Virus record (IMG/VR): IMGVR_UViG_3300045988_134250
Origin: a virus
Lineage: Duplodnaviria > Heunggongvirae > Uroviricota > Caudoviricetes
Direction: 5' to 3' (one strand)
DNA: 64,000 nt
The notes beneath the pieces were generated by a model. That model did not search any database. It was not told the DNA's origin and saw only the letters and a list, made by a program, of their open reading frames with translations. A program made the position numbers and the translations under genes. Of the stretch, positions 1 through 40,820 are shown one piece after another. The first letter of the stretch is position 1. Each line of letters starts with the position of its first letter.

Positions 1-6
1 CTGTCG

Positions 7-198
7 GTGATTAACCCGGAATCGCTGGTGATCAAACAGGGCTTTGCTGAACCGTCGCTGAAAGATGCGGTTGCGGGTAAAGCATTCCAGTTTGAGCGTG
101 AAGGTTACTTCTGCCTCGATAGCCGCCATTCTACGGCGGAAAAACCGGTATTTAACCGCACCGTTGGGCTGCGTGATACCTGGGCGAAGTTAGGTTAA
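7..198 (+). CDS. glnS: 3' terminal fragment of a glutaminyl-tRNA synthetase-like gene (5' end outside window)
   Basis: 63-aa in-frame tail ...[32 protein letters not shown] matches, from memory, the C-terminal region of enterobacterial GlnS; TAA at 196-198 followed by hairpin terminator. Confidence 0.5.
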
Positions 199-220
199 TA
201 GGTATTTCGCCACATAAAAA

Positions 221-249
221 AGTAAACGCCGCTACTGCGGCGTTTTTTA
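221..249. terminator. Bidirectional rho-independent terminator between convergent glnS fragment and methyltransferase gene
   Basis: Stem aacgccgc(225-232)/gcggcgtt(237-244), loop tact, A-run upstream and T-run 243-248 downstream. Confidence 0.6.
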
Positions 250-2607
250 CTTCATTATTGCAATTATATCGTTAGCAACTACACGTGTTGACGCCTTGCA
301 GGAAACCGACCGTCTGGCTGCCATATGATGTACTTTAAACCCGTTTCCTTCATATAGTTCACGGATGTTTGGCGCACCACTATTTGTTATCACTACCTTA
401 GCGCCGCGCTGGTGGGCTTCCACCAATAGAGATACCAGCCGTTTCTGTTCGTCGAAACGGAAGCTATTTCCTGAATAACTGGTAAACCCTTCTGTATCCG
501 GCAGCGGTTCATACGGCGGATCGCAAAAAATCACATCGCCTTCACCAGCCGCCTCGATGACGCCAGCAAAGTCACCTGATACAAAGGACGTGTTTTTGAG
601 TACGTCATCAGCCAAAAATGCCTCCATCTCTGCATGTGGGAAGTAGGGCGCTTTGTATTTGCCATACCCCACGTTGAACTCGCCATTTTGGTTGTACCGC
701 GTTACGCCATTAAAACAGTGCCGATTAAGGTACAAAAAGGCGGCAGCATGATGTAGCTGGTCATACTTTCCTCTGTTAAATGCCTCACGCACTTCGAGGT
801 AAGCGTCAGCGTTGTTGTAATTTTGGAAAAAACTATATGACAGCGTGACGAGCGAATGTCCTTCTCGCTGCAATGTCTGATAGAAGTTAATCAGGTCACC
901 GTTAATATCATTAAGCAGGTTGTGGCGAAATCCTGCATTCGTAAATACAGAACCGCCACCAACGAACGGTTCTATTAACCGCTTGCCGTGTGGTAGATGC
1001 TCAAGCACTGTAGGCAACTCTGAGAATTTACCGCCTACCCATTTGAAGATCGGACGCTCATATTCATCCGGAGTCCGGAGTTTTCTTGTGTAGGTAATGG
1101 TATTTATTGTTTTTGGCTGTTTAGCTTCCACAGTCGCAAGAATGCGACACCCAATCCATTGCATAACAGGAACTGCCATGCTGTTGCCAATCGCTTTGTA
1201 ACGCGGCCCGTCAGCAGCGAGCATCGCGGCTTCTTCTTCGCTTAAATCTGGATAGTGATTGCGAAGGTATGCCAGTTCATCTGAGGAAATTGTTTTACGC
1301 TTTTCCGTAGGGATCAACGTATGCCCATCAGGAAAACCTTGCAGCCTTTCACATTCGACAGGGGTAAGACGGCGGACAGCTACTTCTGCGTTTCTTACTT
1401 CATAGCAAACGGCTGTTGGATTTTGAGCCATTAGAGATGGTGAAGTATTCTTAGTTGCAGCATGTTGTGTACCGCTCATACGCTCAGGAAAAGCTAATGT
1501 AACAAGATGCTCATGGCTTTCTTGCTCACGTGCCCGCAATGTACCATGCCCTTCTGACCAAAAACCTGCTCCTGTGCTGCTAAAAACGGTAAGGTCAGTG
1601 GCATCTTTAAAATCTCTTGCCTTTACTGTCGATGCGGTTTCATCGTCAATATATTCCCCAAATGCTGCCATCCTGAAAGCGTTTACGGCTTTCGTCGATT
1701 TCATACCGGGTGGAATGTCAGCGTGTAGGCATGGATTTAGGCTTTCGCCACTGATTGCAGCGCCATTTGCAATAATGGCGGAAGCGATTTCCTTCTTTTT
1801 TCGGCTCGGCGCAATATCCCGGCGCACGCCTTCGAACTCAAAAAGTATCGTTGCGGGATCGAGGTCTGTTCGAGCACTTGCGACAACAAACACGCGTCGG
1901 CGTCGTTGTGCCACTCCGAAGTATTGGGCATCAAGGATTCTCCAGGCCACTTTTCGCTGCGGTCCATAAATACAACCACACTGCGGCCACTTTGGAGCAT
2001 GGCAACTGGTTTTGACATCCCACCGCCAGAACGCGTTACTTTTTCGTGATTCAGGTCGAGCACCTGGTTCGAATGGCGCATCTTCTCCAGCCAATCCGGC
2101 AAGGAAACATCCGAAGGCGTTATCTGCCGATGACAAGACTCCTGGGACATTTTCCCAGACGATAACGGCTGGTTTGAGAAATGACTCAGCCCGTTTGTCG
2201 TCAATTGCATTTGCAAGCTCCACATACTTTAAAGTTAGCGCGCCACGCTCATCATCAAGCCCACCACGTAATCCAGCGATACTGAATGCCTGACAAGGTG
2301 TTCCCCCGACGAGCACATCAGGGGATTCGATTTCCCCAGCCAGGACTTTTTTGGCAAGTTTTGTCATATCGCCAAGGTTGGCGATATGGGGCCAGCGGTG
2401 CGCAAGAACGGCAGATGGAAAAGGCTCGATTTCAGCAAACCACGCCGGACGCATACCCAACGGTTCCCAGGCAATGCTCGCTGCTTCAATTCCACTGCAA
2501 ACTGAACCATATCTAAGGTTAACGTTCTGCTTCACCGCCAATGGCCTCCACCAGCGCGTTAAACAGTGCAGATAATTCGCCCGTAAAGAGCACGAAATCA
2601 GCATCAA
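247..2607 (-). CDS. dmt: Bifunctional DNA methyltransferase: N-terminal C5-cytosine MTase domain fused to C-terminal Dam-type N6-adenine MTase domain
   Basis: 786-aa ORF; C5-MTase motifs [22 protein letters not shown] (PCQ), [21 protein letters not shown] in N-terminal two thirds; Dam motifs [20 protein letters not shown] in C-terminal third. Track start 2607 is TTG and overlaps the upstream gene; real start probably ATG 2604 or GTG 2535. Confidence 0.8.
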
Positions 2608-6835: not shown

Positions 6836-7138
6836 ATGACCAAAAAAATTAACATAAAGGATTTCAGGGATGCGTGGCTTGATGATTTTTTTGAATTTTC
6901 AACACCACATAGAAAGATACCTCCTGATATTCATATGACATTGTCACGGAAGTTGGACATTATCAATGCCGCAACTACCTGTAAGGATTTAAGATCACCA
7001 CCAGGTAATCGGTATGAGGAACTGTCAGGGAAGCTAAATGGCTATTCATCAGTAAGGGTGAATAAGCAATATAGGTTAATTTTTAGGTGGGTTAACGGAA
7101 AGGCCGAGGACTTGTATCTCGACCCTCACAAATACTAA
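6836..7138 (+). CDS. higB: HigB-type toxin (plasmid maintenance system killer protein family)
   Basis: 100 aa; pattern F.D.WLDDFF...IP......L..L..L..A.....L..P.G.R.E.L.G.L.G..S.RVN..YRLIFRW.....ED..L..H typical of COG3549 killer proteins; RBS ggagga 10 nt upstream of ATG 6836. Confidence 0.7.
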   Translation: MTKKINIKDFRDAWLDDFFEFSTPHRKIPPDIHMTLSRKLDIINAATTCKDLRSPPGNRYEELSGKLNGYSSVRVNKQYRLIFRWVNGKAEDLYLDPHKY

Positions 7139-7208
7139 AACAGATACCCGGTTACGGACCGGGTTCTGACCAGAGTCCACTTAATACGCACGCTAGTAAG
7201 GGCAAAAA

Positions 7209-7547
7209 ATGAAACAGGCAACCAGAAAACCGACGACCGTAGGTGATATCCTGCTGTACGAATACCTGGAGCCGTTAGAGCTGAAGATCAACGAGTTAGC
7301 AGAAATACTTCATGTTCATCGTAACACCGTAAGTGCTCTTGTTAATAATAATCGTAAGCTAACGATGGATATGGCATATCGCCTGGCAAAAGCATTCGAT
7401 ACTTCTGTAGATTTTTGGATTAATCTTCAGACCGCAGTAGACCTGTGGGAAGTCGAAAATGATATGCGCGTTCAGGAAGAGTTAAGTCGTATCAATACTG
7501 CTGAAAAATTTATTTCTCAGCGGAACCTGAATAAAAAAGCAGCCTGA
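7209..7547 (+). CDS. higA: HigA-type antitoxin (XRE-family HTH, VapI-like)
   Basis: 112 aa; TVGDILLYEYLEPLELKINELAEILHVHRNTVSALVNNNRKLTMDMAYRLAKAFDTSVDFWINLQ matches the HigA/VapI HTH pattern; directly downstream of higB. Confidence 0.7.
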   Translation: MKQATRKPTTVGDILLYEYLEPLELKINELAEILHVHRNTVSALVNNNRKLTMDMAYRLAKAFDTSVDFWINLQTAVDLWEVENDMRVQEELSRINTAEKFISQRNLNKKAA

Positions 7548-7567
7548 TATAGTAAAACACATACAAA

Positions 7568-7597
7568 AAGCCCACTTAGCAAGTGGGCTTTCCTTTG
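7568..7597 (+). terminator. Hairpin terminator-like element after higA
   Basis: aagcccactt-agc-aagtgggctt stem-loop followed by tcctttg; ends 7 nt before next ATG (7604). Confidence 0.4.
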
Positions 7598-7603
7598 TAA
7601 TTA

Positions 7604-7963
7604 ATGAACATTAAACCTATCCGTACAGAACAAGATTATGAGGCCGCACTGCGTGCGGTCGAACCGATGTTCGATAACGAACCGGAAATGAATACTCCGG
7701 AAGGTGATTTCTTTGAGGTTATGTGTCTTCTCATTGAGGAGTACGAGAAAAAACATTACCCAATTGAGCCACCATCACCTATTGAGGCCATTAAATTCCG
7801 TATGGAACTGCAAGGACTGACCGTGAAGGATCTGGAACCGGCAATTGGTAAGTCAAACCGTGTTTACGAAGTGCTTAATGGGACACGAAATTTGACGTTA
7901 CCTATGATTCGTCGTTTACATGCCCAGTTTGGTATTCCACTGGAAAGCCTGGTTGGCGTTTGA
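7604..7963 (+). CDS. Second HigA-family antitoxin-like protein (C-terminal HTH), no adjacent cognate toxin
   Basis: 119 aa; C-terminal LTVKDLEPAIGKSNRVYEVLNGTRNLTLPMIRRLHAQFGIPLESL resembles E. coli K-12 HigA C-terminal HTH (...KLTLEHAKKLATRFGI... as recalled). Confidence 0.55.
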   Translation: MNIKPIRTEQDYEAALRAVEPMFDNEPEMNTPEGDFFEVMCLLIEEYEKKHYPIEPPSPIEAIKFRMELQGLTVKDLEPAIGKSNRVYEVLNGTRNLTLPMIRRLHAQFGIPLESLVGV

Positions 7964-20098: not shown

Positions 20099-20392
20099 AT
20101 GAGTCAAGGTAATGGTGACGGAGCTGCAAAGTGCAGAATCTCCACTTGTTTGATTAATGACAAAAAAATAGAACCGTGCGCGGCGTTGGCACAATCTCTG
20201 GAGCAGGATGCTGAATACACGACGCGGAAAGGTCTGCTGAAATACAAAATCTATAACCATGAATTAATTCATTCACAAGACCTGATCATGCTGCGGTCTG
20301 GTGAATTTTCTAAATCGCCTATTCGAGTTTCATTTTGCCCATTCTGTGGTGAAAGTCTGAAAACGTGGGAAGCGGAGGCAACCAGTGAATAA
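20099..20392 (+). CDS. Hypothetical protein
   Basis: 97-aa ORF; CxxC...CxxC pattern (CRISTCL...CPFCG). Confidence 0.4.
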   Translation: MSQGNGDGAAKCRISTCLINDKKIEPCAALAQSLEQDAEYTTRKGLLKYKIYNHELIHSQDLIMLRSGEFSKSPIRVSFCPFCGESLKTWEAEATSE

Positions 20393-21029
20393 CCGCTTTT
20401 ACATGATGTGCTTGCGTGAAACTGTGGGTAATAACGCCTCATTCCATTGCCATAACGGCAATGGTTACAGTTCTGATATCGATCGCGCTCATATTTACAC
20501 GCTGGAAGAAGCCCAAAAAGCCTGGAATTGTGGGCGAGATATCGATCAGCCTGTTTGTGCCGATAGTGTGGATGCAATGGCTGTGTGGCACGTTGATTGC
20601 CAGTACATCCCTACAGAAAGCCTGATTGAGTCAGATTGCACTGAGTATGTGGCCTACAAAAAAGGTAGCTGGAACGGCAACGATGTTTACTGGCTTCAAC
20701 ACGGTGGATTGCCAACAGATGACTTCAGTAAAGCGACCATCTTTAGCTTCGCCAACAAAAACGAACCAGGAATAGTTTGGTTGCCATTTTCCATTGCTGA
20801 TGCAGCAAAGCGCCGGACGTTCAATATCAATAACTTTAACCGCAGAACAATGGTTCAGGGCGCAGGTTTGGTCATGCCTGACTGGTTGAAAGAGCAGAAC
20901 AGAAGAAAGAAGTCGCGAAGCGGGAAGGTGCGTTGGAATTGTCCGCATTGCGGAAAAATAACCTGGCAGTACAGCCCATATGATTTTGAAGGCTGTCGTG
21001 ATTACAACTGTGAAGGATGGCGAGAATGA
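20385..21029 (+). CDS. Hypothetical protein with C-terminal zinc-ribbon-like motif
   Basis: 214 aa; NCPHCGK...GCRDYNCEGW. Confidence 0.45.
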   Translation: MNNRFYMMCLRETVGNNASFHCHNGNGYSSDIDRAHIYTLEEAQKAWNCGRDIDQPVCADSVDAMAVWHVDCQYIPTESLIESDCTEYVAYKKGSWNGNDVYWLQHGGLPTDDFSKATIFSFANKNEPGIVWLPFSIADAAKRRTFNINNFNRRTMVQGAGLVMPDWLKEQNRRKKSRSGKVRWNCPHCGKITWQYSPYDFEGCRDYNCEGWRE

Positions 21030-21739
21030 CAATTGACTATCAGGTACTGCGTGAGGCGGCAGAAAAGGCAACACCAGACGAATGGGTCGCATTTATTTCG
21101 ACGGATACTGGTACTTATGCGGTGCACACGCCCGGTGATGAACGATGTGAAGACGTTATCAAATGGACCGGCTTTGATGGACAGAAAAATGCAGAGAACA
21201 ACGCTCGTTATGTTGCCGCGTTCAACCCAAAGGTTGCACTGGAGCTTCTTGGTGAAATTAAGCGCCTGGAGGACACAAATATTGATGCTATGTGTCGAAT
21301 TGCAGAGCTTGAGACTAATCTCGCGGCGCTGGCGGCGGAGAATGAACTGGCTCGTAAGGCAGTTCAGGCATTCTGCGATGTTGTTGGCGACAACACCGAG
21401 GTTATCGCTGAGGAGGTTGGGCGAGATGGCGTTCTGGTTATTTTGGAGGCCATGAAGGCAACAGGAAATATGCCAGCCACCGATGCTTTTCTGGCTGAAA
21501 TTCGTGCGGAAGCACGCAACGAGGGAGTTAACTATACCGCCAGCCGTCTTGCTGCTGCGTTCAATCACGGATTTATCAATAAGTCTTTGCGTGAAGTTTT
21601 CGACGTTACACGCATGATTTTGTCAGCGAAAGAAGAGTTGGCTAATGAAGCGCATCCGATTGATGGCCTGTCTGGTGAATATGCGGAGAAATCCCTTGAA
21701 GAATGGGCGGAACAGATTCGCAAAGGAGCTGACAAGTGA
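21017..21739 (+). CDS. Coiled-coil protein, paralogous family member
   Basis: 240 aa; N-terminal MTIDYQVLREAAEKATPDEW parallels 22675 gene; AALAAEN segment shared with 16746 and 22143 genes. Confidence 0.5.
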   Translation: MARMTIDYQVLREAAEKATPDEWVAFISTDTGTYAVHTPGDERCEDVIKWTGFDGQKNAENNARYVAAFNPKVALELLGEIKRLEDTNIDAMCRIAELETNLAALAAENELARKAVQAFCDVVGDNTEVIAEEVGRDGVLVILEAMKATGNMPATDAFLAEIRAEARNEGVNYTASRLAAAFNHGFINKSLREVFDVTRMILSAKEELANEAHPIDGLSGEYAEKSLEEWAEQIRKGADK

Positions 21740-22146
21740 AGAAGATGATTTTTATCGCGGCATTGTTGGTGAATATCCAACAAGTGCATGCTTCAGCAGC
21801 TATTGTAGCCTCTACCGCCGCGACTACGGCTGCTGTAGCTGCTGCGAACTCTGCGAATATCGCAAACCAACAGGCACAGCGTGCTGCTAATGCATCAGCC
21901 AGCGTTCACTCAATCACCATTAAGAGCAGTAAGCAAAATCTGGGATTCATAACGTGCGGCACGCGTTCTAATGAAGCTGTAGGTTCACTTGGATGTACGG
22001 TATATGGGGGTAGTGAGAATAGAGAAATTCCATGGAAAACGTGGCCCGGATACGTTCTTGGCTCGAAGCTCCCGGCCAGTTATGAAGTAAACGCCGTATC
22101 GTTTGATCACTATAACGGCGTGGCAACGGTCTATTTTGCATATTGA
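21736..22146 (+). CDS. Secreted protein of unknown function
   Basis: 136 aa; signal peptide MKKMIFIAALLVNIQQVHA. Confidence 0.5.
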   Translation: MKKMIFIAALLVNIQQVHASAAIVASTAATTAAVAAANSANIANQQAQRAANASASVHSITIKSSKQNLGFITCGTRSNEAVGSLGCTVYGGSENREIPWKTWPGYVLGSKLPASYEVNAVSFDHYNGVATVYFAY

Positions 22147-22688
22147 GGCTCCGCATGAAATTCTCCAAATTTTCTGAGTTGGTGAATCGTATTTTGTTGA
22201 ATCGTATTTTGTCCAACAACCACAGCCATCGTCGCGATATGGATGTAACGATCGTTGTTCATTCGCCTGGCAGCATTGGTTCAACACCCTCAGTTGAGGT
22301 TCAGTCAATTCACGCTGGTTTTGATTGGGATTCCGGGAAAGTGCTGATTTTCCCAGCACAGCCACTGACCACTCTAACACCAGAACAGATTACTGATATT
22401 ACTGATAGTGTGCGCAAAGGTCAGTCCTGGCACGCATATCAGGAATACAAGAAGCATAAAGAGCAGTTGGAAAAATTATCGATTGAACTTGATACCGCAA
22501 AACAGCGCATTGCAGAGCTGGAGAGCAATCGCGCGGCGCTGGCGGCGGAGCATGGTATTCAGATTGCAATAAATGAACTGCTTGCTCTGGCCCCGCGTCT
22601 GGATAAACGAGCGGTGGATGCACTCTCTGTGGCTGTGGAGCACCTGTGTAAACTGATTAAGAAGGAGGCAGTCAGTGAGCAAAATTAA
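22143..22688 (+). CDS. Coiled-coil protein, paralogous family member
   Basis: 181 aa; RIAELESNRAALAAEH segment. Confidence 0.45.
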   Translation: MRLRMKFSKFSELVNRILLNRILSNNHSHRRDMDVTIVVHSPGSIGSTPSVEVQSIHAGFDWDSGKVLIFPAQPLTTLTPEQITDITDSVRKGQSWHAYQEYKKHKEQLEKLSIELDTAKQRIAELESNRAALAAEHGIQIAINELLALAPRLDKRAVDALSVAVEHLCKLIKKEAVSEQN

Positions 22689-23313
22689 TTACCAGGCACT
22701 GCGTGAGGCGGCAGAGAAAGCAACGTGGGGAGACTGGGACTCATATAAACCACACCGTGGCGCACGTGGTTATAAGGTCCGACTAAGTGGTCAGGCCATT
22801 GCGCAACACGTTCTGAAAAACAACGCTGAATTTATTGCTGCCTTTAATCCAAAGGTTGCTTTGGCATTACTGGATGAACTGGAAAGAAACCAGCAATACA
22901 TCAAATCTCGCGACCAGGAGAACGAGGATATTGCGCTTACGGTAGGGAAGCTGCTAATCGAAAACGGCCGGCTTGTTGCCGATACGCTACGCCACTTAGC
23001 TGATAACGAAATCGACTCTGATTATTTTGCTATCACCTCAACGAATGAGAACGGTACTGAAATTGATCATGAGATGGCTATTACCGATTACGCACTGCAA
23101 GCTGCCGGAACTGTAGACGAATTGGTTGCGGCGTTGGAATCCGCAGAGAAGCGCATTGCAGAACTGGAAGCACGGGAAATATCGCTCCCAGAACGTAGCA
23201 GCATGCTTCATCGAACAGATTTTCACGAGGATTACCAAACGGTAATGGCATACAAAGTTTCTGAAGTCATCGATGCAATCCGCGCTACTGGCATTCGCAT
23301 CAAAGGAGAGTGA
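22675..23313 (+). CDS. Hypothetical protein, paralogous family member
   Basis: 212 aa; N-terminal MSKINYQALREAAEKATWGDW. Confidence 0.45.
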   Translation: MSKINYQALREAAEKATWGDWDSYKPHRGARGYKVRLSGQAIAQHVLKNNAEFIAAFNPKVALALLDELERNQQYIKSRDQENEDIALTVGKLLIENGRLVADTLRHLADNEIDSDYFAITSTNENGTEIDHEMAITDYALQAAGTVDELVAALESAEKRIAELEAREISLPERSSMLHRTDFHEDYQTVMAYKVSEVIDAIRATGIRIKGE

Positions 23314-23314
23314 G

Positions 23315-23725
23315 ATGAACGCTATAACCAAAGAACGTATCAAATTATTCATTAAAAATCCGCTTGATAACGGACTTACTCGTGGCGAACAAATGGAACT
23401 GGCACGAATTGCTCTGGCATCGCTGGAAGCAGAGGCAGTTATGTTCTGTATATCAGGACAAAATGTAGATTCAGAAGAACATGTATCAACCAGCAAAGCG
23501 GTTGTTGATGCCTGGGTTGAAGAATGGAATCAGGTTGACGGAAGTCCTGGCGAACCACTGTACAAAACTATGCCACTCTACTATCACGCTGCCTTGCCAG
23601 CGCCGGTAGTGCCGGATGAAATGTATTGGCAGGATGCGCCAGTTGAAGGCAGCAGCAAAGCGGCTGCATACGCTACAGGCTGGAACGCCTGCCGCGCCGC
23701 TATGCTTCATGGGAAAGGAGAGTGA
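23315..23725 (+). CDS. Hypothetical protein, N-terminal paralog of 24001 gene
   Basis: ATG 23315 with RBS aaaggagag (track gave 23273); MNAITKERIKLFIKNPLDNGLTRGEQMELARIALASLEA. Confidence 0.5.
   Translation: MNAITKERIKLFIKNPLDNGLTRGEQMELARIALASLEAEAVMFCISGQNVDSEEHVSTSKAVVDAWVEEWNQVDGSPGEPLYKTMPLYYHAALPAPVVPDEMYWQDAPVEGSSKAAAYATGWNACRAAMLHGKGE
23327..23433 (+). repeat. ~105-bp direct repeat, copy A
   Basis: accaaagaacgtat-aaattattcattaaaaatccgcttga...ctggcatcgctggaagcaga, about 90% identical to 24013-24119. Confidence 0.7.
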
Positions 23726-23726
23726 T

Positions 23727-23990
23727 ATGGCAACTTTAACAAAAAAAGAACGGGCATGGTTGAACGAATTACAGGACGTTCTTGATCGCTGCCCATCACC
23801 GAAAAAAATTGGTTTTTACACCATTGGCGATAAAAGCATTTACCTGTATGACCTGCGCCGCATGGATGAAATCATGGAGACTCTTGATAATCGTTCGTCG
23901 ATGGATTGGTGTGTTGCTGTTCATGATATGAATGCAGGGTTTGATGAAAAGATTTTGTTCCCCTCATCAGTTGAAAGCACTGCGGGTTAA
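23727..23990 (+). CDS. Hypothetical protein
   Basis: ATG 23727 with RBS ggaaaggag (track 23616 start is inside previous gene); MATLTKKERAWLNELQ... Confidence 0.45.
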   Translation: MATLTKKERAWLNELQDVLDRCPSPKKIGFYTIGDKSIYLYDLRRMDEIMETLDNRSSMDWCVAVHDMNAGFDEKILFPSSVESTAG

Positions 23991-24000
23991 GGAGTAACAC

Positions 24001-25521
24001 ATGACCACTATTACCAAAGAACGTATTGAATTGTTCATTAAAAATCCGCTTGAAAACGGGCTTACCCGTGGTGAACAAATGGAACTGGCACGGATTGCGC
24101 TGGCATCGCTGGAAGCAGATCCAGTTAAACGAGTTAACTCAGATCAGATGCGCCGAGTCTGCTTAGAAGCTAATCGCCATTTAGATAAATATGACGCGAT
24201 GGCGAAAGAGGTAAATAAGTTGCTTGGACGCATCGCCCCGCCAGCGCCGGTAGTGCCGGAAGAAGCAACTCCGGAAAACGTAGAAATGCTCTCTGGCTAT
24301 GTTTCCACGTACAAATTAACCGATAGCGAGCGCGATATTGCTGCCGAAATATGGAACGCCTGCCGCACCGCCATGCTTCAGTCCGGAAACTTTCGGGAAA
24401 GCAAGAATTCGTCAACCAATAATTTTCGGGAAATCGCGGAAACGTCAACCAACTATCCGGTAATTCCTAGTGAGGTGTTGTCAGCAATCCTGAAGTTTGC
24501 CAGAGTTCGTGCCGATTTCGATGATTTTGACGGTGACAGGCGAGGTATCGGTGATTGTCTGGATGAGGCCGAGCAAGAGCTTATCGTTACCATTAACAAA
24601 TATGCCAGTCAGTTGGCAGCAGAACCGATAGCGACTAATGACGTTCGAGAGCAAACAGCCGTTCCGCCAATACAGGCTGATGTCGCGCAAGCAATTGAAA
24701 ATCTCAAGCAGAAGTTAGTGGAATGCAATCGCTATAACTACTGCGCAGATGCAGTTAAAGGCGTAGAGGATGCCAGCCGCGTCTTGGCACTCCAAAATCA
24801 AAATATGTCAGCACCGGTAACGCCGGAGGCCATTGAAAACGCAATTGAATATATCCGCAGTATCGCTTTTCACATCGATGAAGACGATTACCACGGCAAG
24901 CATATTGCGTATTTCATGCGACAAGCATTGGCCTGGCTGGAAGGGCATTCATGCAGCGACGACAGGCTGGGTAAGGCCGACAATCAACCCGCATCTGGTA
25001 ACCAGTCTGCCGAATCCAATCGCGGTAATGAGTGGACCGGCAATCCTGATATTGATAACGCCATCATCATGCTCGACCGCATAGATACGGCGGAAAGTTG
25101 CGATGATGACCGTATTGAGGCCGTTAAGGCTGTGTTGCGTAGACTGGCAGGCAACTATCCGGATATTCCGGATAGTTCGGTGCCAGCGCCAGGAAAGGGC
25201 GTCACCGGTGAACGTATCCGCATTAAGCCGCATGTTTATCGCGAACTGGTTAACCGTCTCCACGATACAGCGATCAAGTGTGCTGGCACCCAGCAATTAC
25301 GAGAAAGAATTAGCCGTGTTTTGGGCGACGTTATTACACCAGATCATCATAAACAAGCCGAGAAAAGTGGCCTGGAAAGGTGTCGCCTTGAGGCGGCATT
25401 AAACATTAAGCCGGGGCATACGCTTGGCATTATTGATGCACTATTGGTTCATAAGATGGCCAGGGCTTTATTGCCGCTGGTGGCTGAAAAGCATGAGGTG
25501 GACCATGCCAACGAAAGCTGA
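24001..25521 (+). CDS. Hypothetical protein (506 aa), N-terminal paralog of 23315 gene
   Basis: MTTITKERIELFIKNPLENGLTRGEQMELARIALASLEA; also shares PAPVVP and WNACR.AML segments. Confidence 0.5.
   Translation: MTTITKERIELFIKNPLENGLTRGEQMELARIALASLEADPVKRVNSDQMRRVCLEANRHLDKYDAMAKEVNKLLGRIAPPAPVVPEEATPENVEMLSGYVSTYKLTDSERDIAAEIWNACRTAMLQSGNFRESKNSSTNNFREIAETSTNYPVIPSEVLSAILKFARVRADFDDFDGDRRGIGDCLDEAEQELIVTINKYASQLAAEPIATNDVREQTAVPPIQADVAQAIENLKQKLVECNRYNYCADAVKGVEDASRVLALQNQNMSAPVTPEAIENAIEYIRSIAFHIDEDDYHGKHIAYFMRQALAWLEGHSCSDDRLGKADNQPASGNQSAESNRGNEWTGNPDIDNAIIMLDRIDTAESCDDDRIEAVKAVLRRLAGNYPDIPDSSVPAPGKGVTGERIRIKPHVYRELVNRLHDTAIKCAGTQQLRERISRVLGDVITPDHHKQAEKSGLERCRLEAALNIKPGHTLGIIDALLVHKMARALLPLVAEKHEVDHANES
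24013..24119 (+). repeat. ~105-bp direct repeat, copy B
   Basis: Near-identical to 23327-23433. Confidence 0.7.
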
Positions 25522-25789
25522 ATTACAGGTGCGCGTAGATGAGCTTGAAAAAGAGAACGCGAGCCTCAAAAAAATGCTGTCGCGGGCGGAAAGGGAATTA
25601 TCAGGCAAATTATTGCCAGAAGAACTGCCACCAGCAGATATACCTGATCGAGTGTCCTGGTGGATGAAGTATTTCCGTGCACCGTGGGAGGCGTTTTGGT
25701 GCTACGACCATCGCAGATGGTGTGATGAGCTTGATAGCAGTTTCCCCTATTTTGCAGAAGGGAACTCTTGCCCTGAATGTAGGCGTTAA
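25505..25789 (+). CDS. Small Cys-rich protein, paralog of next gene
   Basis: ATG 25505 (track 25424); WEAFWCYDHRRWCDELDSSFPYFAEGNSCPECRR. Confidence 0.45.
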   Translation: MPTKAELQVRVDELEKENASLKKMLSRAERELSGKLLPEELPPADIPDRVSWWMKYFRAPWEAFWCYDHRRWCDELDSSFPYFAEGNSCPECRR

Positions 25790-26094
25790 TGATGACCGGC
25801 GAGCTTTATTTTAAAATGGCACGGGAGCGGCGTGTGCATCTGGATCGGATATTTCATCTCCAGAAGAGAGTAGAAGAACTGGAACGTCGTCTGAACTGTT
25901 ATCCTGTTGATATGGTGTCTGCAATACCGCCGATTCCAATAGAAATGCAGATCCGCCTATGGATGGAAGAATATGGAATGCCGTGGGAGATATTTTTCTG
26001 CTTCGACCATAAACAGTGGGTAGATGAGCTGGATAATAGTTTCCCATATTTCACAGAGAACACATGCCCAGTATGCAGGAAGAACGGAATATGA
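25789..26094 (+). CDS. Small Cys-rich protein, paralog of previous gene
   Basis: 101 aa; WEIFFCFDHKQWVDELDNSFPYFTENTCPVCRK; TAATG start overlap. Confidence 0.45.
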   Translation: MMTGELYFKMARERRVHLDRIFHLQKRVEELERRLNCYPVDMVSAIPPIPIEMQIRLWMEEYGMPWEIFFCFDHKQWVDELDNSFPYFTENTCPVCRKNGI

Positions 26095-26615
26095 CAAAAT
26101 TTGGAAAGCTGGAAGCTCATTTGCTAACTCGCAACTACCGCCATGATATACACCCATATAGACAGTGGATCGATGAAAGCGAAGGAGTAGTTACATTCCC
26201 TCTCTACAGGTTTGATGGGATGTTGGCTGGGTATCAGACATATAGACCAGGTGCACCTAAGCAGCATAGCAATCCGAAGATGGCCCGGTATTTCACGCGA
26301 TCACACGGCAGACAGTTACTTTGGGGAACCTATCTTCCTTTAAAAGATGGCCCAATATGGATAACTGAGTCTATTTTTAAGAGCGCAGCTGTACACAACG
26401 CGGGCGGCAATTCGTGGGCGCTGTTAGGTTCAACTTTCTCCGCAGGATTACGCCGTCAACTTGCGATGCTGCCGTATGACTTTCGCGTAATAGGTGACAA
26501 TGATGCGGCTGGTGAATCACTTGTGAAGTCTTTCGGAAAAGGTTTTGTGGCCCCGGATCTTGACGAGCTACAACCACATGAAGTGTCTCATTTGATTTTT
26601 AGCCATAGCCAATAA
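26091..26615 (+). CDS. Hypothetical protein
   Basis: ATG 26091 with RBS aggaag (track 26064); contains VIGDNDAAG (Toprim-like DxD?). Confidence 0.4.
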   Translation: MTKFGKLEAHLLTRNYRHDIHPYRQWIDESEGVVTFPLYRFDGMLAGYQTYRPGAPKQHSNPKMARYFTRSHGRQLLWGTYLPLKDGPIWITESIFKSAAVHNAGGNSWALLGSTFSAGLRRQLAMLPYDFRVIGDNDAAGESLVKSFGKGFVAPDLDELQPHEVSHLIFSHSQ

Positions 26616-26823
26616 GCATCTCTCCCCTTTGAGGTCACAATTAGTGGCCTTAAACAATGTGTTTTCTACCTCGATTTAGCCTTTATTATCGTTTTGCATT
26701 TCTCTAATCCGGGCAACGAGGTTACGCTGATTCGTTGGTGATGAATAGTAGCAAAGCGCACAAAATCATCTGCGGTGGTTGATGTACGTAACGCGTTTGC
26801 ACCAAATGTGTCTCTTTAATGTA

Positions 26824-26843
26824 TACTGTATAAATGAACAGTA
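26824..26843 (+). promoter_or_regulatory. LexA box (SOS operator)
   Basis: tactgtataaatgaacagta matches CTGT-N8-ACAG; 20 bp upstream of humD ATG. Confidence 0.75.
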
Positions 26844-26862
26844 TTATTGAGGTGAAAACGCT

Positions 26863-27252
26863 ATGGGCTTCCCTTCTCCTGCGGCGGACTATGTTGAAAG
26901 CCGAATTTCTCTTGATCAGCAACTAATCAGGCATCCATCAGCGACATACTTCATGCGGGCGGCAGACAGCCATCACCGTGAGGGAATATTGCAGGGTGCT
27001 TTGCTGGTGGTTGATTCTTCGCTTACTCCAGTTGATGGTTCGCTGCTTGTGTGCGCTATGGAGGGAGAATATCGCGTAAAAAGATACCGGAAGTATCCGC
27101 GCCAGCACCTGGAGGATTTAAGCACCGGGAAGAAAGAGGCGTTACCAGTAGATGACGATGGTTACACGGGTAGTAATGCTGTTTTTGGTGTGATCACCCA
27201 CATTATCAATGACGCCAGGGGCGGTGAATTTGATGATAGTCCTGCTATATGA
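26863..27252 (+). CDS. humD: UmuD'-like protein (pre-processed UmuD homolog)
   Basis: 129 aa; begins MGFPSPAADYVESRISLDQQLIRHPSATYF, aligning with E. coli UmuD from Gly25 (the RecA-mediated cleavage product). Confidence 0.75.
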   Translation: MGFPSPAADYVESRISLDQQLIRHPSATYFMRAADSHHREGILQGALLVVDSSLTPVDGSLLVCAMEGEYRVKRYRKYPRQHLEDLSTGKKEALPVDDDGYTGSNAVFGVITHIINDARGGEFDDSPAI

Positions 27253-27386
27253 TTTGTTTTCAGAGAAACCATAGAGAGGCATGACTGGATCTATATCGCC
27301 CTGGCCATTTAAATGATTCCTCCCATTAGACGCGGTTACTCACTTGAAGATAAGATGAGGTTATAATTCTCTTTTTAGGTACGCGA

Positions 27387-27809
27387 ATGAGTTCGTCTGC
27401 TTTTGTCACTGTTGTCACTGGAGTAAGCGTTTTTGTCCTAGGTCGACTCATCATCAAGGGGGTTGAGTCTTACATTTCATTCAAGGAACAGTTGGGGGAA
27501 ATATCGCATCTGTTATTGTCTAACCAAGCAAAGCTATCGAATCCCCGCTCTGACTTAAAACAAGAAATCATCCATGATTTGAAAGATGCGGCAGCACAGT
27601 TACGGGTGAAGTACGAACTATTACCTTTCTATATCAAAATGTTACACATCGGTTTTCGCCTTGTTCCATCAGAAACTGAAATTCGTAAAGCGGCGCAAGA
27701 ATTGAATCTGATAGCCTCGATACATGATGGTAAAACCGGAGAGCTGCCATATGAGCACATAGCCAAGATTGGATTACTGCTCAGAATTCCAACCACTTAT
27801 TCTGCTTAA
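27387..27809 (+). CDS. Hypothetical protein with N-terminal TM helix
   Basis: 140 aa; AFVTVVTGVSVFVLGRLII hydrophobic segment; lies between humD and phd. Confidence 0.45.
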   Translation: MSSSAFVTVVTGVSVFVLGRLIIKGVESYISFKEQLGEISHLLLSNQAKLSNPRSDLKQEIIHDLKDAAAQLRVKYELLPFYIKMLHIGFRLVPSETEIRKAAQELNLIASIHDGKTGELPYEHIAKIGLLLRIPTTYSA

Positions 27810-27917
27810 TCCCAGCAATTGCAAGACTGCATCTCGAGGATTTAAGGCACCAAGAAGTGGTATTCAGCATCATTAAAACCTATAATTGCGTACACATAAC
27901 GAGCACACGAGGTGTTT

Positions 27918-28139
27918 ATGCAATCCATTAACTTCCGTACCGCGCGCGGCAACCTTTCTGAAGTGCTCAACAATGTTGAAGCCGGGGAAGAGGTTGAAAT
28001 CACCCGCAGAGGCCGTGAGCCAGCAGTAATTGTCAGCAAGGCTACTTTTGAAGCCTACAAAAAAGCGGCGCTGGATGCCGAATTTGCATCCCTGTTTGAC
28101 ACCCTGGACTCCACCAACAAGGAACTGGTTAACCGATAA
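27918..28139 (+). CDS. phd: Phd antitoxin
   Basis: [73 protein letters not shown] matches P1 Phd as recalled; ATG 27918 (track GTG 27912). Confidence 0.85.
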
Positions 28140-28519
28140 TGAGGCATATATCACCGGAAGAACTTATTGCGCTTCATGATGCGAATATAAGCCGCTACGG
28201 CGGCCTGCCGGGAATGTCAGATCCGGGTAGGGCAGAGGCCATTATCGGGAGAGTTCAGGCCAGAGTTGCCTACGAAGAGATCACCGACCTTTTCGAAGTC
28301 TCCGCCACCTACCTGGTGGCTACGGCGAGAGGGCATATATTCAATGATGCCAATAAGCGTACCGCGCTAAACAGTGCGCTGCTATTTCTACGCCGTAACG
28401 GTATACAGGTATATGATGATCCCGTGCTGGTGGAGCTTGCAGTGGGGGCTGCAACTGGTGAAATCCCCGTATCTTCAGTAGCGAAAAAACTACGTGAACT
28501 ATATGGTTCCAATATTTGA
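28139..28519 (+). CDS. doc: Doc toxin (Fic-fold kinase)
   Basis: 126 aa, [25 protein letters not shown]...[11 protein letters not shown]; TAATG overlap with phd. Confidence 0.85.
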
Positions 28520-39527: not shown

Positions 39528-39603
39528 TGGTGGCCCCTACCGGACTTGAACCGGTGACCGTGCGATTATGAGTCGCCCGCTCTAACCACTGAGCTAAAGG
39601 GCC
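39528..39603 (-). tRNA. tRNA-Ile2 (anticodon CAU, ileX-like)
   Basis: GGCCCTTTAGCTCAGTGGTTAGAGCGGGCGACTCATAATCGCACGGTCACCGGTTCAAGTCCGGTAGGGGCCACCA; near-identical to E. coli ileX as recalled; encoded CCA. Confidence 0.8.
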
Positions 39604-40032
39604 AGATTACTGTTAATTACGCTTACGCTTTTTGCCAGAACCGCGTAAGGCTTTTGCCGCTTGCTCTACCCCGTATGCAACCACCAGCAGAAACAATAAT
39701 GTCCACTCCGGGTTTTTATCGGCAAACGCCCAAAAATCCATCACTTGCAGCCACCTTTTAAGACAAAACGCCATTGCTGTTAGGTTGCGGTGCCGGGCGC
39801 CTCCCGGTGACGTTAACCAGTTAACAATTAACGCCGGATCACTTATGGATTCTCGTTACGCCAGTAAAAAGACCACCTTTACTGTTTTAACTGTTCCGCG
39901 TGCGCTTAGCCGCATTCACCGCAATGGTAAGAGCATTTGGCTGACTGGGCGGCGATGACGCCTGTACGCATTTGGTGATCCGGTTCTGCTTCCGGCATTC
40001 GCTTAATTAGCCAAATACCCTTAATGTTGCAC

Positions 40033-40119
40033 TGGCGGAGAGTAATGGAATCGAACCATCATCGCTTGCGCAATGGGACGGTTTTCAAGACCGCTTGAGC
40101 ACCATGCTCCCTACTCTCC
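40033..40119 (-). tRNA. tRNA-Ser (anticodon UGA), type II
   Basis: Acceptor GGAGAGT/ACTCTCC, anticodon arm CGGTCTTGAAAACCG identical to E. coli serT, long variable arm, T-loop TTCGATT, CCA end. Confidence 0.7.
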
Positions 40120-40491
40120 CGTTATTGTGGCGACCGGTGCTGATCTCCGGCTTGCGGTTATTTCAGACTCTCACGGGCGTTTAATTGCCCCGCCGAACAG
40201 CTCTTTTCCGCAATAGCTGCAATGTCTTTCGCGCATCAGCCTGCGCATTCACCACAATGTTGAGAACACTGGTTGTCACGCTGCAACGCAACATTTATTC
40301 GTAGATTGGGATATGACCCCGTTACGCCAGTGTTCTCAACGTTGTAGTGCCGGTTACGGTTCCGGCCAGACCTCTTCCTCAACGGGGTGTTCTCCATACG
40401 GACTACCGTTTATTGGTCGTTCCTGCGGTTTATGTTGTGAAGCCAGATGCTTATCTTCTGGTTGCTTCAAAGAGCTGCACTTCATCACAAC

Positions 40492-40565
40492 GGTAAGAGC
40501 ATTTATGGCTCGCATCGCGGGAAAAAGCCCACGGTAGAGAGTCGAACTCTACAAATGCTCTTACC
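40492..40565. repeat. 13-bp perfect inverted repeat enclosing a tRNA 3'-half-like element
   Basis: ggtaagagcattt (40492-40504) / aaatgctcttacc (40553-40565); on the minus strand the loop reads GTAGAG-TTCGACT-CTCTAC-CGTGGGC-TTTTT (T-arm plus acceptor-like 7-mer plus U-run); related copy at 39926-39938. Confidence 0.5.
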
Positions 40566-40573
40566 TGTTGTGT

Positions 40574-40649
40574 TGGTGCCGGTTAACGGGATCGAACCGC
40601 TGACCATTCGCTTACAAAGCGACTGCTCTACCAACTGAGCTAAACCGGC
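40574..40649 (-). tRNA. tRNA-Thr (anticodon UGU)
   Basis: GCCGGTTTAGCTCAGTTGGTAGAGCAGTCGCTTTGTAAGCGAATGGTCAGCGGTTCGATCCCGTTAACCGGCACCA. Confidence 0.8.
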
Positions 40650-40653
40650 AATT

Positions 40654-40740
40654 TGGTGGGGAGTGATGGAGTCGAACCACCCGAGTCGCAATGACAGTAG
40701 ATTTACAGTCTACCCCGCTACCCCTACGGACTAACTCCCC
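40654..40740 (-). tRNA. tRNA-Tyr (anticodon GUA), type II
   Basis: Acceptor GGGGAGT/ACTCCCC; anticodon arm GTAGACTGTAAATCTAC (E. coli tyrT: CAGACTGTAAATCTG); long variable arm; TTCGACT T-loop; CCA. Confidence 0.75.
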
Positions 40741-40745
40741 TAAAT

Positions 40746-40820
40746 TGGCGATGGTGGGTGGATTCGAACCACCGACCAGTTGGTTAACAGCCAACTGCTC
40801 TACCGCTGAGCTACACCATC
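40746..40820 (-). tRNA. tRNA-Asn (anticodon GUU)
   Basis: GATGGTGTAGCTCAGCGGTAGAGCAGTTGGCTGTTAACCAACTGGTCGGTGGTTCGAATCCACCCACCATCGCCA. Confidence 0.8.

Follow-up and report, generated by a model that had tools for sequence, protein, structure and literature searches.

Features at the left end of the window

The window (the whole stretch of viral DNA analysed here, 64,000 nucleotides in length) opens inside a plus-strand reading frame, which is followed by a hairpin and by the end of a convergent methyltransferase gene. The features are as follows.

1 to 198, plus strand: 3' end of glnS (glutamine--tRNA ligase), from translation, Pfam, identity with K-12 and mapping to D6
189 to 223, plus strand: remodelled C-terminal tail and a short spacer without a REP element, from alignments
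224 to 245, both strands: predicted two-way intrinsic terminator hairpin, from a consensus scan, folding and comparison among genera
247 to 2535, minus strand: dmt, a fused C5-cytosine and Dam-type adenine DNA methyltransferase, from the ORF list and homologues

Translation of bases 1 to 198 in frame 1 gives 65 codons and a TAA stop (196 to 198), with a second in-frame stop, TAG, at 199 to 201; leftwards the frame stays open up to position 1. The preliminary description had recognized a GlnS-like end here, counting 63 residues from position 7, which is simply the first GTG chosen by the ORF finder. The assignment is borne out: the peptide of bases 1 to 195 matches PF20974, the C-terminal beta-barrel anticodon-binding domain of class I Glu/Gln-tRNA synthetases (E = 1.3e-12; 48.6 bits, cut-off 23.9), and bases 1 to 188 are identical to E. 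coli K-12 glnS at 188 of 188 positions. Over the same interval D6 has a single base difference, and the visible 195 coding bases contain neither a frameshift nor an internal stop. Beyond this point the alignments diverge: the GlnRS of the window ends AKLG*, whereas chromosomal GlnRS ends AKVGE*, and an E. fergusonii D6-like plasmid has AKVEG*. Escherichia chromosomes have REP elements in the spacer between stop and terminator, whereas this spacer has none in the window.

The hairpin, AAACGCCGC-TACT-GCGGCGTTT, has 9 pairs, 6 of them G-C, and a loop of 4. It is followed by T6 on the plus strand (T-tract 243 to 248) and by TTTACTTTTTT on the minus strand, for which the A-tract at 216 to 221 would supply the U-tract. 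A consensus terminator scan detected it on both strands; its 67-nt context folds at -19.8 kcal/mol on the plus strand and -21.3 kcal/mol on the minus strand (z = -4.0 and -3.5), none of 200 shuffles folded as well, and the motif occurs once in 64 kb where 0 were expected. These results uphold the earlier proposal that one hairpin is shared by glnS and the dmt-like gene. An Rfam search of bases 1 to 700 returned sub-threshold matches only, all of them on this hairpin. Structurally it is a bidirectional intrinsic (Rho-independent) terminator, predicted to end the transcripts of both genes.

The dmt gene is convergent with glnS, and its stop codon (249 to 247, minus strand) lies within the terminator T-tract; the start near 2535 is taken from annotated homologues of 2289 nt. 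A promoter-like site on the minus strand at 291 to 263 (TCAACA-17-TATAAT, 10 of 12 matches) was put down to chance, as the region holds 3 such sites against 4.4 expected.

The complete gene on D6-like phage-plasmids

The presence of glnS in D6-like phage-plasmids is already known. The gene is annotated as orf62 of D6 (GenBank MF356679.1 / NC_050154.1; Gilcrease & Casjens 2018, as cited in PMC6799933 and in the GenBank annotation), occurs in plasmid prophages such as pYU39_89, and was reported in all D6-like genomes and termed a moron by Bravo et al. (2019, PMC6799933). Hence, the discovery value of the present locus is small, and its fragmentary look is an artefact of the position at which the window begins; a partial ORF that runs off the edge of a window should be taken neither for a truncated gene nor for a junction.

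Collinearity with circular D6 extends over the window, from D6 position 61389 through 91159/1 to 29436, at 97 to 99.5% identity, which agrees with the preliminary description in assigning the DNA to the right of the hairpin to the P1/D6 family. Position 1 corresponds to D6 61389, inside orf62 (59925 to 61586), so that bases 1 to 198 are nucleotides 1465 to 1662 of a 1662-nt gene, the preceding 1,464 nt falling upstream of position 1. In D6 and the inspected plasmids glnS sits between orf61 and dmt, and the dmt side of this arrangement is visible here. Collinearity, the occurrence of relatives as circular plasmids of about 90 kb and the position of glnS place the window in the D6 lineage of P1-like phage-plasmids.

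About 1.4% of complete E. coli genomes contain this lineage, which Salmonella and Shigella harbour as well. The glnS-terminator-dmt junction is carried by 75 of 5,426 complete E. coli genomes, all 20 of the matches listed being plasmid records. D6-type dam was detected in 101 of the same 5,426 genomes, in exactly 75 of them at 95% identity or more. The 1,992-bp segment from the end of orf61 to the end of dmt matched 117 PLSDB records, about 100 of which are plasmids of 88 to 97 kb from E. coli, Salmonella and Shigella; circular relatives of this size are typed rep_cluster_1704. A Klebsiella 'plasmid' and four Mb-sized PLSDB records are chromosomal DNA, and the four from E. coli were used only as chromosomal glnS alleles. 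Among close relatives, the first 20 kb of the window are 99.7% identical to JS316, and bases 1 to 260 are 99.6% identical to ETEC1706. As maintenance systems the window also encodes RelE/HigA (6836 to 7963), and ParM and ParA are encoded nearby in D6.

In D6, orf62 is annotated as a glutaminyl-tRNA synthetase; its product scores 1068 bits against the NCBIfam glnS equivalog TIGR00440 (cut-off 426) and has all three Pfam domains, PF00749, PF03950 and PF20974. Annotations of the ETEC1706, JS316, N17S016, Z1323, 13ZX28 and KY1497 plasmids include the same 1662-nt CDS. Eight of eight plasmid alleles of good quality are intact, with HIGH at 41 to 44 and VMSKR at 268 to 272; pSa1423-160k, which is full of indels, was left out of the allele statistics. 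The preliminary description had offered a captured host gene fragment as one reading of the locus. Its host origin stands, but D6 has the gene in full, as do about 100 circular phage-plasmids of its lineage and all the close relatives that were inspected, and for this particular genome completeness is predicted from those relatives.

Values of dN/dS for plasmid glnS range from 0.009 to 0.034, and this range takes in comparisons of one plasmid with another, for which dS reaches 0.23. Judged by these ratios, the carried copies are under strong purifying selection, and they look functional. Gene conversion from chromosomal alleles could be a partial source of the low dN/dS, because the 3' two-thirds of plasmid glnS are mosaic with chromosomal variation, an observation added by this analysis. 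The 5' part contains a plasmid-specific patch of mostly synonymous changes (CDS nt 87 to 585) with one fixed change, I112V; E. ruysiae was considered as its donor and rejected, being no closer than E. coli. The allele on Salmonella D6-like plasmids is of the E. coli type and matches D6 at 99.9% identity across the 1,992-bp segment, whereas chromosomal Salmonella GlnRS has only 93% amino-acid identity to D6 GlnRS; the gene therefore travels with the phage.

Probable capture of a host transcription unit

Morons are autonomous promoter-gene-terminator units inserted between phage genes, as described in the genomics of lambdoid phages. In D6 and its relatives a promoter, TTGTCA-17-GATCAT, lies 65 nt upstream of the glnS ATG (outside the window) and is common to chromosomal glnS. 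At the other end, the stem of the hairpin is found 20 to 30 nt past the stop of chromosomal glnS in Citrobacter, Salmonella, Pseudescherichia, Enterobacter, Kluyvera, Trabulsiella and Atlantibacter, while Escherichia chromosomes have it behind the REP elements. Comparison across these genera shows the hairpin to be the native glnS terminator and, since it is conserved in at least seven enterobacterial genera, indicates that it was captured together with the gene; it is now predicted also to end convergent dmt. Empty sites exist in the E. marmotae and E. coli D6-like plasmids L004 and L005, where orf61 is directly convergent with dmt and the terminator differs from the hairpin of the window. 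Because promoter and terminator are both native to glnS, and relatives without glnS have a different hairpin, we consider the unit a promoter-gene-terminator moron.

The limits of the insertion are best seen on the right. Homology with plasmids lacking glnS starts at window position 258, and the last three codons of dmt differ from those of relatives without glnS, which places the right edge at about 246 to 257; the left edge of the captured DNA is approximate. A capture junction near 189, where chromosomal BLAST homology ends (188 to 194), was considered and rejected after other genera had been aligned: the break there reflects an indel-rich C-terminal tail and the absence of the Escherichia-specific REP insert.

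Very probably, then, bases 1 to 260 are the downstream end of a host-derived moron on D6-lineage P1-like phage-plasmids, with the following origin and mode of action. An ancestor of the D6 lineage would have picked up glnS from an Escherichia-like chromosome as a complete unit, with its sigma-70 promoter, coding sequence and own intrinsic terminator, and this unit would have been placed between orf61 and convergent dmt. As the window opens 1,464 nt inside glnS, what it shows of this locus would be the final 65 codons, the terminator and the end of dmt. In the plasmid prophage the captured promoter may drive transcription of glnS, which would end at the 224 to 245 hairpin, where dmt transcription would be stopped in the other orientation. 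The product would be an active second glutaminyl-tRNA synthetase charging host tRNA-Gln, and its most likely benefit would be to supplement or back up an essential translation function. To what was known, the present analysis adds that the whole transcription unit, including its native terminator, was captured once. The presence of glnS defines the D6 lineage proper, alongside sister lineages with empty sites.

Several other readings of the locus were weighed. The preliminary description had suggested a chromosome/prophage junction, to be given up if the same sequence lay inside circular D6-like plasmids. A D6-like prophage integrated next to or into chromosomal glnS, with the attachment junction at about 190 to 260, would account for the complete identity of bases 1 to 188 with K-12 and for the end of chromosomal BLAST homology at about 188 to 194. 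However, the identical order of glnS, terminator and dmt occurs inside phage D6 and closed circular plasmids of about 90 kb, and none of the listed records among the 75 with the junction is chromosomal. Moreover, none of the 101 matches to D6-type dam in the 5,426 complete E. coli genomes lies on a chromosome, chromosomal matches to bases 1 to 260 never cover 80%, the sequence past the stop is the conserved native glnS terminator rather than phage backbone, and the break near 189 amounts to a small patch of indels at the final codons, which varies in the E. fergusonii plasmid too. Integration at glnS is hence extremely improbable. A related idea is that this genome has lost or disrupted the 5' part of glnS immediately upstream of position 1, leaving the tail of a pseudogene. 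The relevant sequence does lie outside the window, and among PLSDB relatives H123 matches in two pieces while H85, H116 and H120 have no annotated glnS. Nevertheless, such a relic is very unlikely here, as coverage of the full segment reaches 80% or more in 113 of the 117 matches from PLSDB, all the closest relatives (JS316 and ETEC1706 included) have the full 1662-nt CDS, and the visible tail is undamaged and, over bases 1 to 188, identical to a functional allele.

The hairpin itself might be the phage's own dmt terminator, with glnS inserted upstream of it and lacking one. It adjoins the dmt stop codon and is predicted to work on the minus strand. We regard this as highly improbable, because D6-like plasmids without glnS have another hairpin after dmt, AAAAGCCCC-loop-GGGGCTTTT, whereas the AAACGCCGC/GCGGCGTTT stem follows chromosomal glnS in the other genera and, behind REP, in Escherichia, and because homology with the glnS-less relatives begins only past the hairpin. 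A different kind of alternative concerns function: the plasmid glnS may have replaced the chromosomal copy in expression or function, making plasmid loss lethal or costly. Such addiction by takeover of an essential gene has been suggested for D6-like glnS (PMC6799933) and has an experimentally documented precedent in cysS (PMC6333337, PMC6785131); the strong purifying selection on the plasmid copy and the maintenance systems already stacked on these plasmids would fit it as well. Yet the chromosomal 3' end of glnS is kept in essentially all E. coli genomes, the 75 carriers included (5,500 matching records, 75 to 76 of them plasmid-borne, against 5,425 genomes with any match), and about a quarter of D6-type plasmids have no glnS. 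The captured promoter is also nearly identical to the chromosomal one and therefore gives no sign of preferential expression. Such a takeover is, on balance, quite unlikely, and we favour an acquired moron that would supplement the chromosomal copy.

Implications and comparison with known systems

It is puzzling that a P1-like phage-plasmid lineage retains, under strong purifying selection, a synthetase gene that nearly duplicates an essential one of its host. One speculation, which we think has a small chance of being correct, is that the carried glnS is a lever on an essential host function, either as addiction by takeover or as a translational boost during lytic growth under Dam control, and at the same time a site of gene conversion or cointegration. 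A GATC lies within the -10 element of the carried native promoter, and the phage encodes a Dam methylase next door, so that Dam might control such a boost. Near-identity with the chromosome over 1.7 kb might likewise permit active gene conversion or reversible cointegration of phage-plasmid and chromosome; the mosaicism across the 3' two-thirds of glnS and the identity of the visible tail with K-12 are compatible with this.

Among known systems the closest is D6 itself, in which glnS has the same position between orf61 and dmt, the same AKLG* end and the same terminator as in the window. The methyltransferase region differs: D6 has a split orf63 and orf64, whereas dmt of the window is a single fused ORF whose C5-methylase half is P1-like. 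Chromosomal glnS of K-12 (b0680) shares the promoter, ribosome-binding region and terminator stem with the plasmid unit, and plasmid alleles are 95 to 98% identical to chromosomal alleles in coding sequence. In K-12, however, the gene is flanked by nagE and chiP rather than by phage genes, and it has the AKVGE* end and REP elements and lacks the patch at nt 87 to 585, in contrast to the plasmid copy. The unit resembles other morons in having its own promoter and terminator, in lying between two backbone genes and in being absent at the same site in relatives, but its cargo is an essential housekeeping gene copied recently from the host, whereas the usual cargo is a lysogenic-conversion or defence gene. 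A parallel for such cargo is cysS on pBT1 of Salmonella Typhimurium ST313 D23580, likewise a complete aminoacyl-tRNA synthetase gene beside a chromosomal copy, where the copy shown to be expressed and essential is that of the plasmid (PMC6333337, PMC6785131). Compared with pBT1 cysS, D6-like glnS differs in that its carrier is a phage-plasmid and that its sequence is almost the same as that of the host gene.

glnS at the window edge and its complete counterpart in D6

Translation of window bases 1-198 gives 65 residues in frame 1, uninterrupted from base 1 and open at the window edge. This peptide matches PF20974, the second anticodon-binding domain of class I Glu/Gln-tRNA synthetases, with E=1.3e-12 (above the curated cut-off), and E. 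coli K-12 glnS is identical to bases 1-188. The preliminary description, a GlnS end followed by a hairpin and the convergent methyltransferase gene dmt, is borne out by the translation, the domain match, the fold and the dmt stop within the T-tract. The 63 residues that it counted from position 7 are indeed GlnS, by the PF20974 and K-12 matches, but that start is merely the first GTG taken by an ORF finder. Window position 1 corresponds to position 61389 of Escherichia phage D6, the best phage match of the first 260 bases, and to nucleotide 1465 of D6 orf62. This gene (59925-61586, 1662 nt) is annotated 'glutaminyl-tRNA synthetase, similar to E. coli GlnS', has orf61 on one side and the dam-type methylase orf63 on the other, and encodes a protein with the catalytic and both anticodon-binding domains, whose score against the NCBIfam glnS equivalog is 1068 bits (cut-off, 426). 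A complete 1662-nt glnS CDS is annotated in all close relatives that we opened (ETEC1706, JS316, S. Typhimurium N17S016, Z1323HEC0010, 13ZX28 and KY1497). Since the window starts inside a gene that is complete in D6 and its relatives, and since the window otherwise keeps the order of circular D6 (collinear from 61389, across the record origin, to 29436), the 'fragment' is a product of the window boundary. Hence, the proposal of a captured host gene fragment holds for the host origin of the DNA but not for the fragment: the gene is whole in D6 and its relatives, and the window edge cuts it.

A chromosome/prophage junction had also been proposed. The 1,992 bp that reach from the orf61 end to the dmt end occur in 117 PLSDB records and are at least 80% covered in 113 of these; E. 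coli, Salmonella and Shigella plasmids 88-97 kb in size make up approximately 100 of the records. A search of 5,426 complete E. coli genomes with window 1-260 gave 75 records that match over the full length at 98-99.6%, while chromosomal matches are limited to the glnS part. All 20 of the matches listed for 1-260 are plasmids, 19 of them of ~90 kb, with glnS annotated beside a DNA adenine methylase; this sequence, glnS end included, is therefore found within circular D6-like plasmids. Of the 5,426 genomes, 101 carry the D6-type dam segment (window 258-1150), in every case on a plasmid and in none on a chromosome; the glnS end therefore does not mark a chromosome/prophage junction. Exactly 75 of these 101 dam matches have at least 95% identity, equalling the number of glnS-positive records; the others form one band at 90-95% and another near 73%.

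Terminator, extent of the insertion and empty sites

The hairpin at 224-245 (AAACGCCGC-TACT-GCGGCGTTT) is preceded by an A-tract and followed by a T-tract, is called a terminator on both strands by a consensus scan, is much more stably folded than shuffled controls (z about -4 and -3.5) and occurs once in the 64-kb window. The dmt stop codon, TAA at 249-247 (-), lies within the T-tract. BLAST similarity to E. coli chromosomes ends at window 188-194. In alignments of other genera (Citrobacter, Salmonella, Pseudescherichia, Enterobacter, Kluyvera, Trabulsiella and Atlantibacter), AAACGCCGC-loop-GCGGCGTTTTTT lies 20-30 nt past the glnS stop, and Escherichia chromosomes have the same hairpin farther from the stop, beyond inserted REP elements. 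Because the same hairpin follows chromosomal glnS in other genera, the 224-245 hairpin is the native glnS terminator, taken up along with the gene. A junction inside the last glnS codons (188-194) was ruled out by the same alignment, which places the terminator beyond the break; what looks like a 'break' at 189 is a minor patch of indels, through which the C-terminal tail AKVGE* has become AKLG*. Upstream, chromosome-like sequence begins at the -35 hexamer (TTGTCA-17-GATCAT, 65 nt 5' of the ATG), and plasmid and chromosomal glnS have their 5' UTR and ribosome-binding site in common. In relatives that lack glnS, another hairpin (AAAAGCCCC..GGGGCTTTT) lies 3' of dmt, and homology with the window starts only at 258; thus, the insertion spans from the promoter to about 246-257. 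The last three dmt codons and the stop thus came from the insertion, and the glnS terminator is predicted now to serve dmt in reverse. This arrangement of promoter, gene and terminator between two backbone genes is classic phage moron architecture.

No Rfam family reached threshold in window 1-700. A promoter-like site at 263-291 (-), TCAACA-17-TATAAT (10/12), lies within the dmt 3' end and faces the terminator, antisense to glnS; it is probably due to chance, as there is no excess of such sites in the region.

E. marmotae NZ_CP056699.1 and E. coli pHX138.33gt_1 lack glnS: their orf61 and dmt converge directly, with 95-135 nt between them. These loci are empty sites, and their presence in other D6-type lineages indicates a single glnS insertion in the ancestor of the D6 lineage proper. 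An E. fergusonii D6-like plasmid, with the upstream junction and terminator stem of the D6 lineage and a glnS that is ~5% diverged and ends in AKVEG*, is consistent with this single insertion. The empty-site plasmids of E. marmotae (locus L004, 3889-4025) and E. coli NZ_CP091837.1 (locus L005, 3894-3990) carry their own, different hairpin between orf61 and dmt, and contradict a published claim that glnS is present in all D6-like genomes. Lineages without glnS account for ~26 of the 101 D6-type plasmids in complete E. coli genomes.

Other segments of the window are also mosaic. The dmt gene (247-2535, -) is a single fused ORF for C5-cytosine and Dam methylation, ~96% identical to P1 dmt over 1151-2511, whereas D6 has split methylases, orf63 (Dam) and orf64 (a different C5 enzyme); the methylase module is thus a mosaic of the two lineages, P1 and D6. 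The window is ~4.8 kb longer than the matching D6 interval, and 20153-28482 (phd-doc, humD and upf genes), a further mosaic segment, matches P7 and SJ46 at ~95% and not D6. A toxin-antitoxin region has its counterpart in D6 orf70-72:

6836-7138, + strand: RelE/HigB-type toxin ORF
7209-7547, + strand: HigA-like antitoxin ORF
7604-7963, + strand: HigA-like antitoxin ORF

Constraint and exchange with host chromosomes

The eight good-quality plasmid glnS alleles are all intact and retain HIGH (41-44) and VMSKR (268-272), and the encoded GlnRS differs from that of K-12 by only 2-7 residues. Pairwise dN/dS among glnS alleles is 0.009-0.034, plasmid-versus-plasmid pairs included; dS within the latter is 0.09-0.23, as deep as or deeper than that between two chromosomal E. 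coli alleles (0.12). The phage-plasmid carries a complete glnS transcription unit under purifying selection, with its native promoter and terminator, the latter common to dmt. Salmonella D6-like plasmids hold an E. coli-type glnS with 99.9% identity to D6 across the 1,992-bp segment, whereas chromosomal Salmonella GlnRS has only 93% protein identity to that of D6, so that the gene moves with the phage and is kept. In pSa1423-160k (Salmonella sp., NZ_MK356558.1), the glnS region is full of single-base indels and has no glnS annotation; this looks like an unpolished long-read assembly and not a real pseudogene.

The plasmid-specific fixed differences all lie within CDS nt 87-585 (13/13; P about 1e-6 under uniform placement), a patch that is mostly synonymous in the alignment of plasmid and chromosomal alleles. 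E. ruysiae was rejected as its donor. From nt 600 on, plasmid alleles fall inside chromosomal E. coli diversity, and over nt 600-1650 they are interleaved with chromosomal polymorphism. The window's glnS tail matches K-12 exactly, including a variant absent from D6. This mosaicism and the K-12-identical tail suggest repeated gene conversion between phage-plasmids and host chromosomes. Such conversion would bring in already-purified variation, inflating the apparent constraint.

Possible function and relation to known systems

Lysogens would be expected to express the phage-plasmid glnS, whose product may be an active second GlnRS charging host tRNA-Gln. The window's tRNA cluster (39528-40820, -) has five genes (Met-CAT, Ser-TGA, Thr-TGT, Tyr-GTA and Asn-GTT) and lacks tRNA-Gln, though the element carries a GlnRS gene. 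Chromosomal glnS is repressed by Dam methylation of promoter GATC sites (Plumbridge & Soll 1987, a result taken up and reproduced in PMC12369378). Dam-dependent control of plasmid glnS is plausible by analogy, because the GATC in the -10 element is kept in all plasmid alleles and the gene next door is a Dam-type methylase. In PMC6799933, the D6-like glnS is termed a moron, a role in host fitness or plasmid maintenance is suggested and an analogy is drawn with the essential plasmid-borne cysS of pBT1. A simple takeover of chromosomal glnS by the plasmid copy is not favoured: chromosomal glnS is still present in essentially every carrier genome, and about a quarter of D6-type plasmids lack glnS. 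We consider it unlikely that the plasmid copy acts on host translation as a functional lever or serves as a portal for recombination with the chromosome.

Other plasmids also bear glnS. In Citrobacter cronae NZ_CP060445.1 (locus L006, 2918-6742; conjugative, MOBP/MPF_I), cysS and glnS lie ~760 bp apart, separated by a single small hypothetical ORF, and ~740 bp upstream of cysS is a higB/antitoxin pair; two synthetase genes thus occur on one plasmid. Its glnS shares only 86% identity with that of E. coli and is therefore an independent acquisition. Another independent acquisition is that of the Enterobacter ludwigii plasmid NZ_CP116349.1 (locus L007, 1788-7002), where glnS adjoins two site-specific integrase genes and a dinQ toxin. 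Five PLSDB 'plasmids' with chromosomal DNA (CP099174.1, CP061270.1, NZ_CP141089.1, NZ_CP134663.1 and NZ_OP378648.1) are mislabelled chromosomes, chromosome fragments or misassemblies: in four E. coli records of 1.2-4.9 Mb, glnS matches at chromosomal-type boundaries, with nagE-glnS(-chiP) annotated in 2/4, and a 316-kb K. pneumoniae record holds the whole chromosomal nagE-glnS-chiP-fur neighbourhood.

The closest known system is glnS (orf62) of phage D6 and D6-like plasmid prophages, i.e., the window's gene itself, which Gilcrease & Casjens reportedly discussed in 2018. The presence of glnS on D6-like phage-plasmids is already known; the D6 gene has its annotation in GenBank MF356679.1 and is treated in PMC6799933. 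What we add (that the terminator is native to glnS, that empty sites exist, that glnS coincides with the dam clade of at least 95% identity and that the alleles are mosaic) refines this known system, with no new kind of element.
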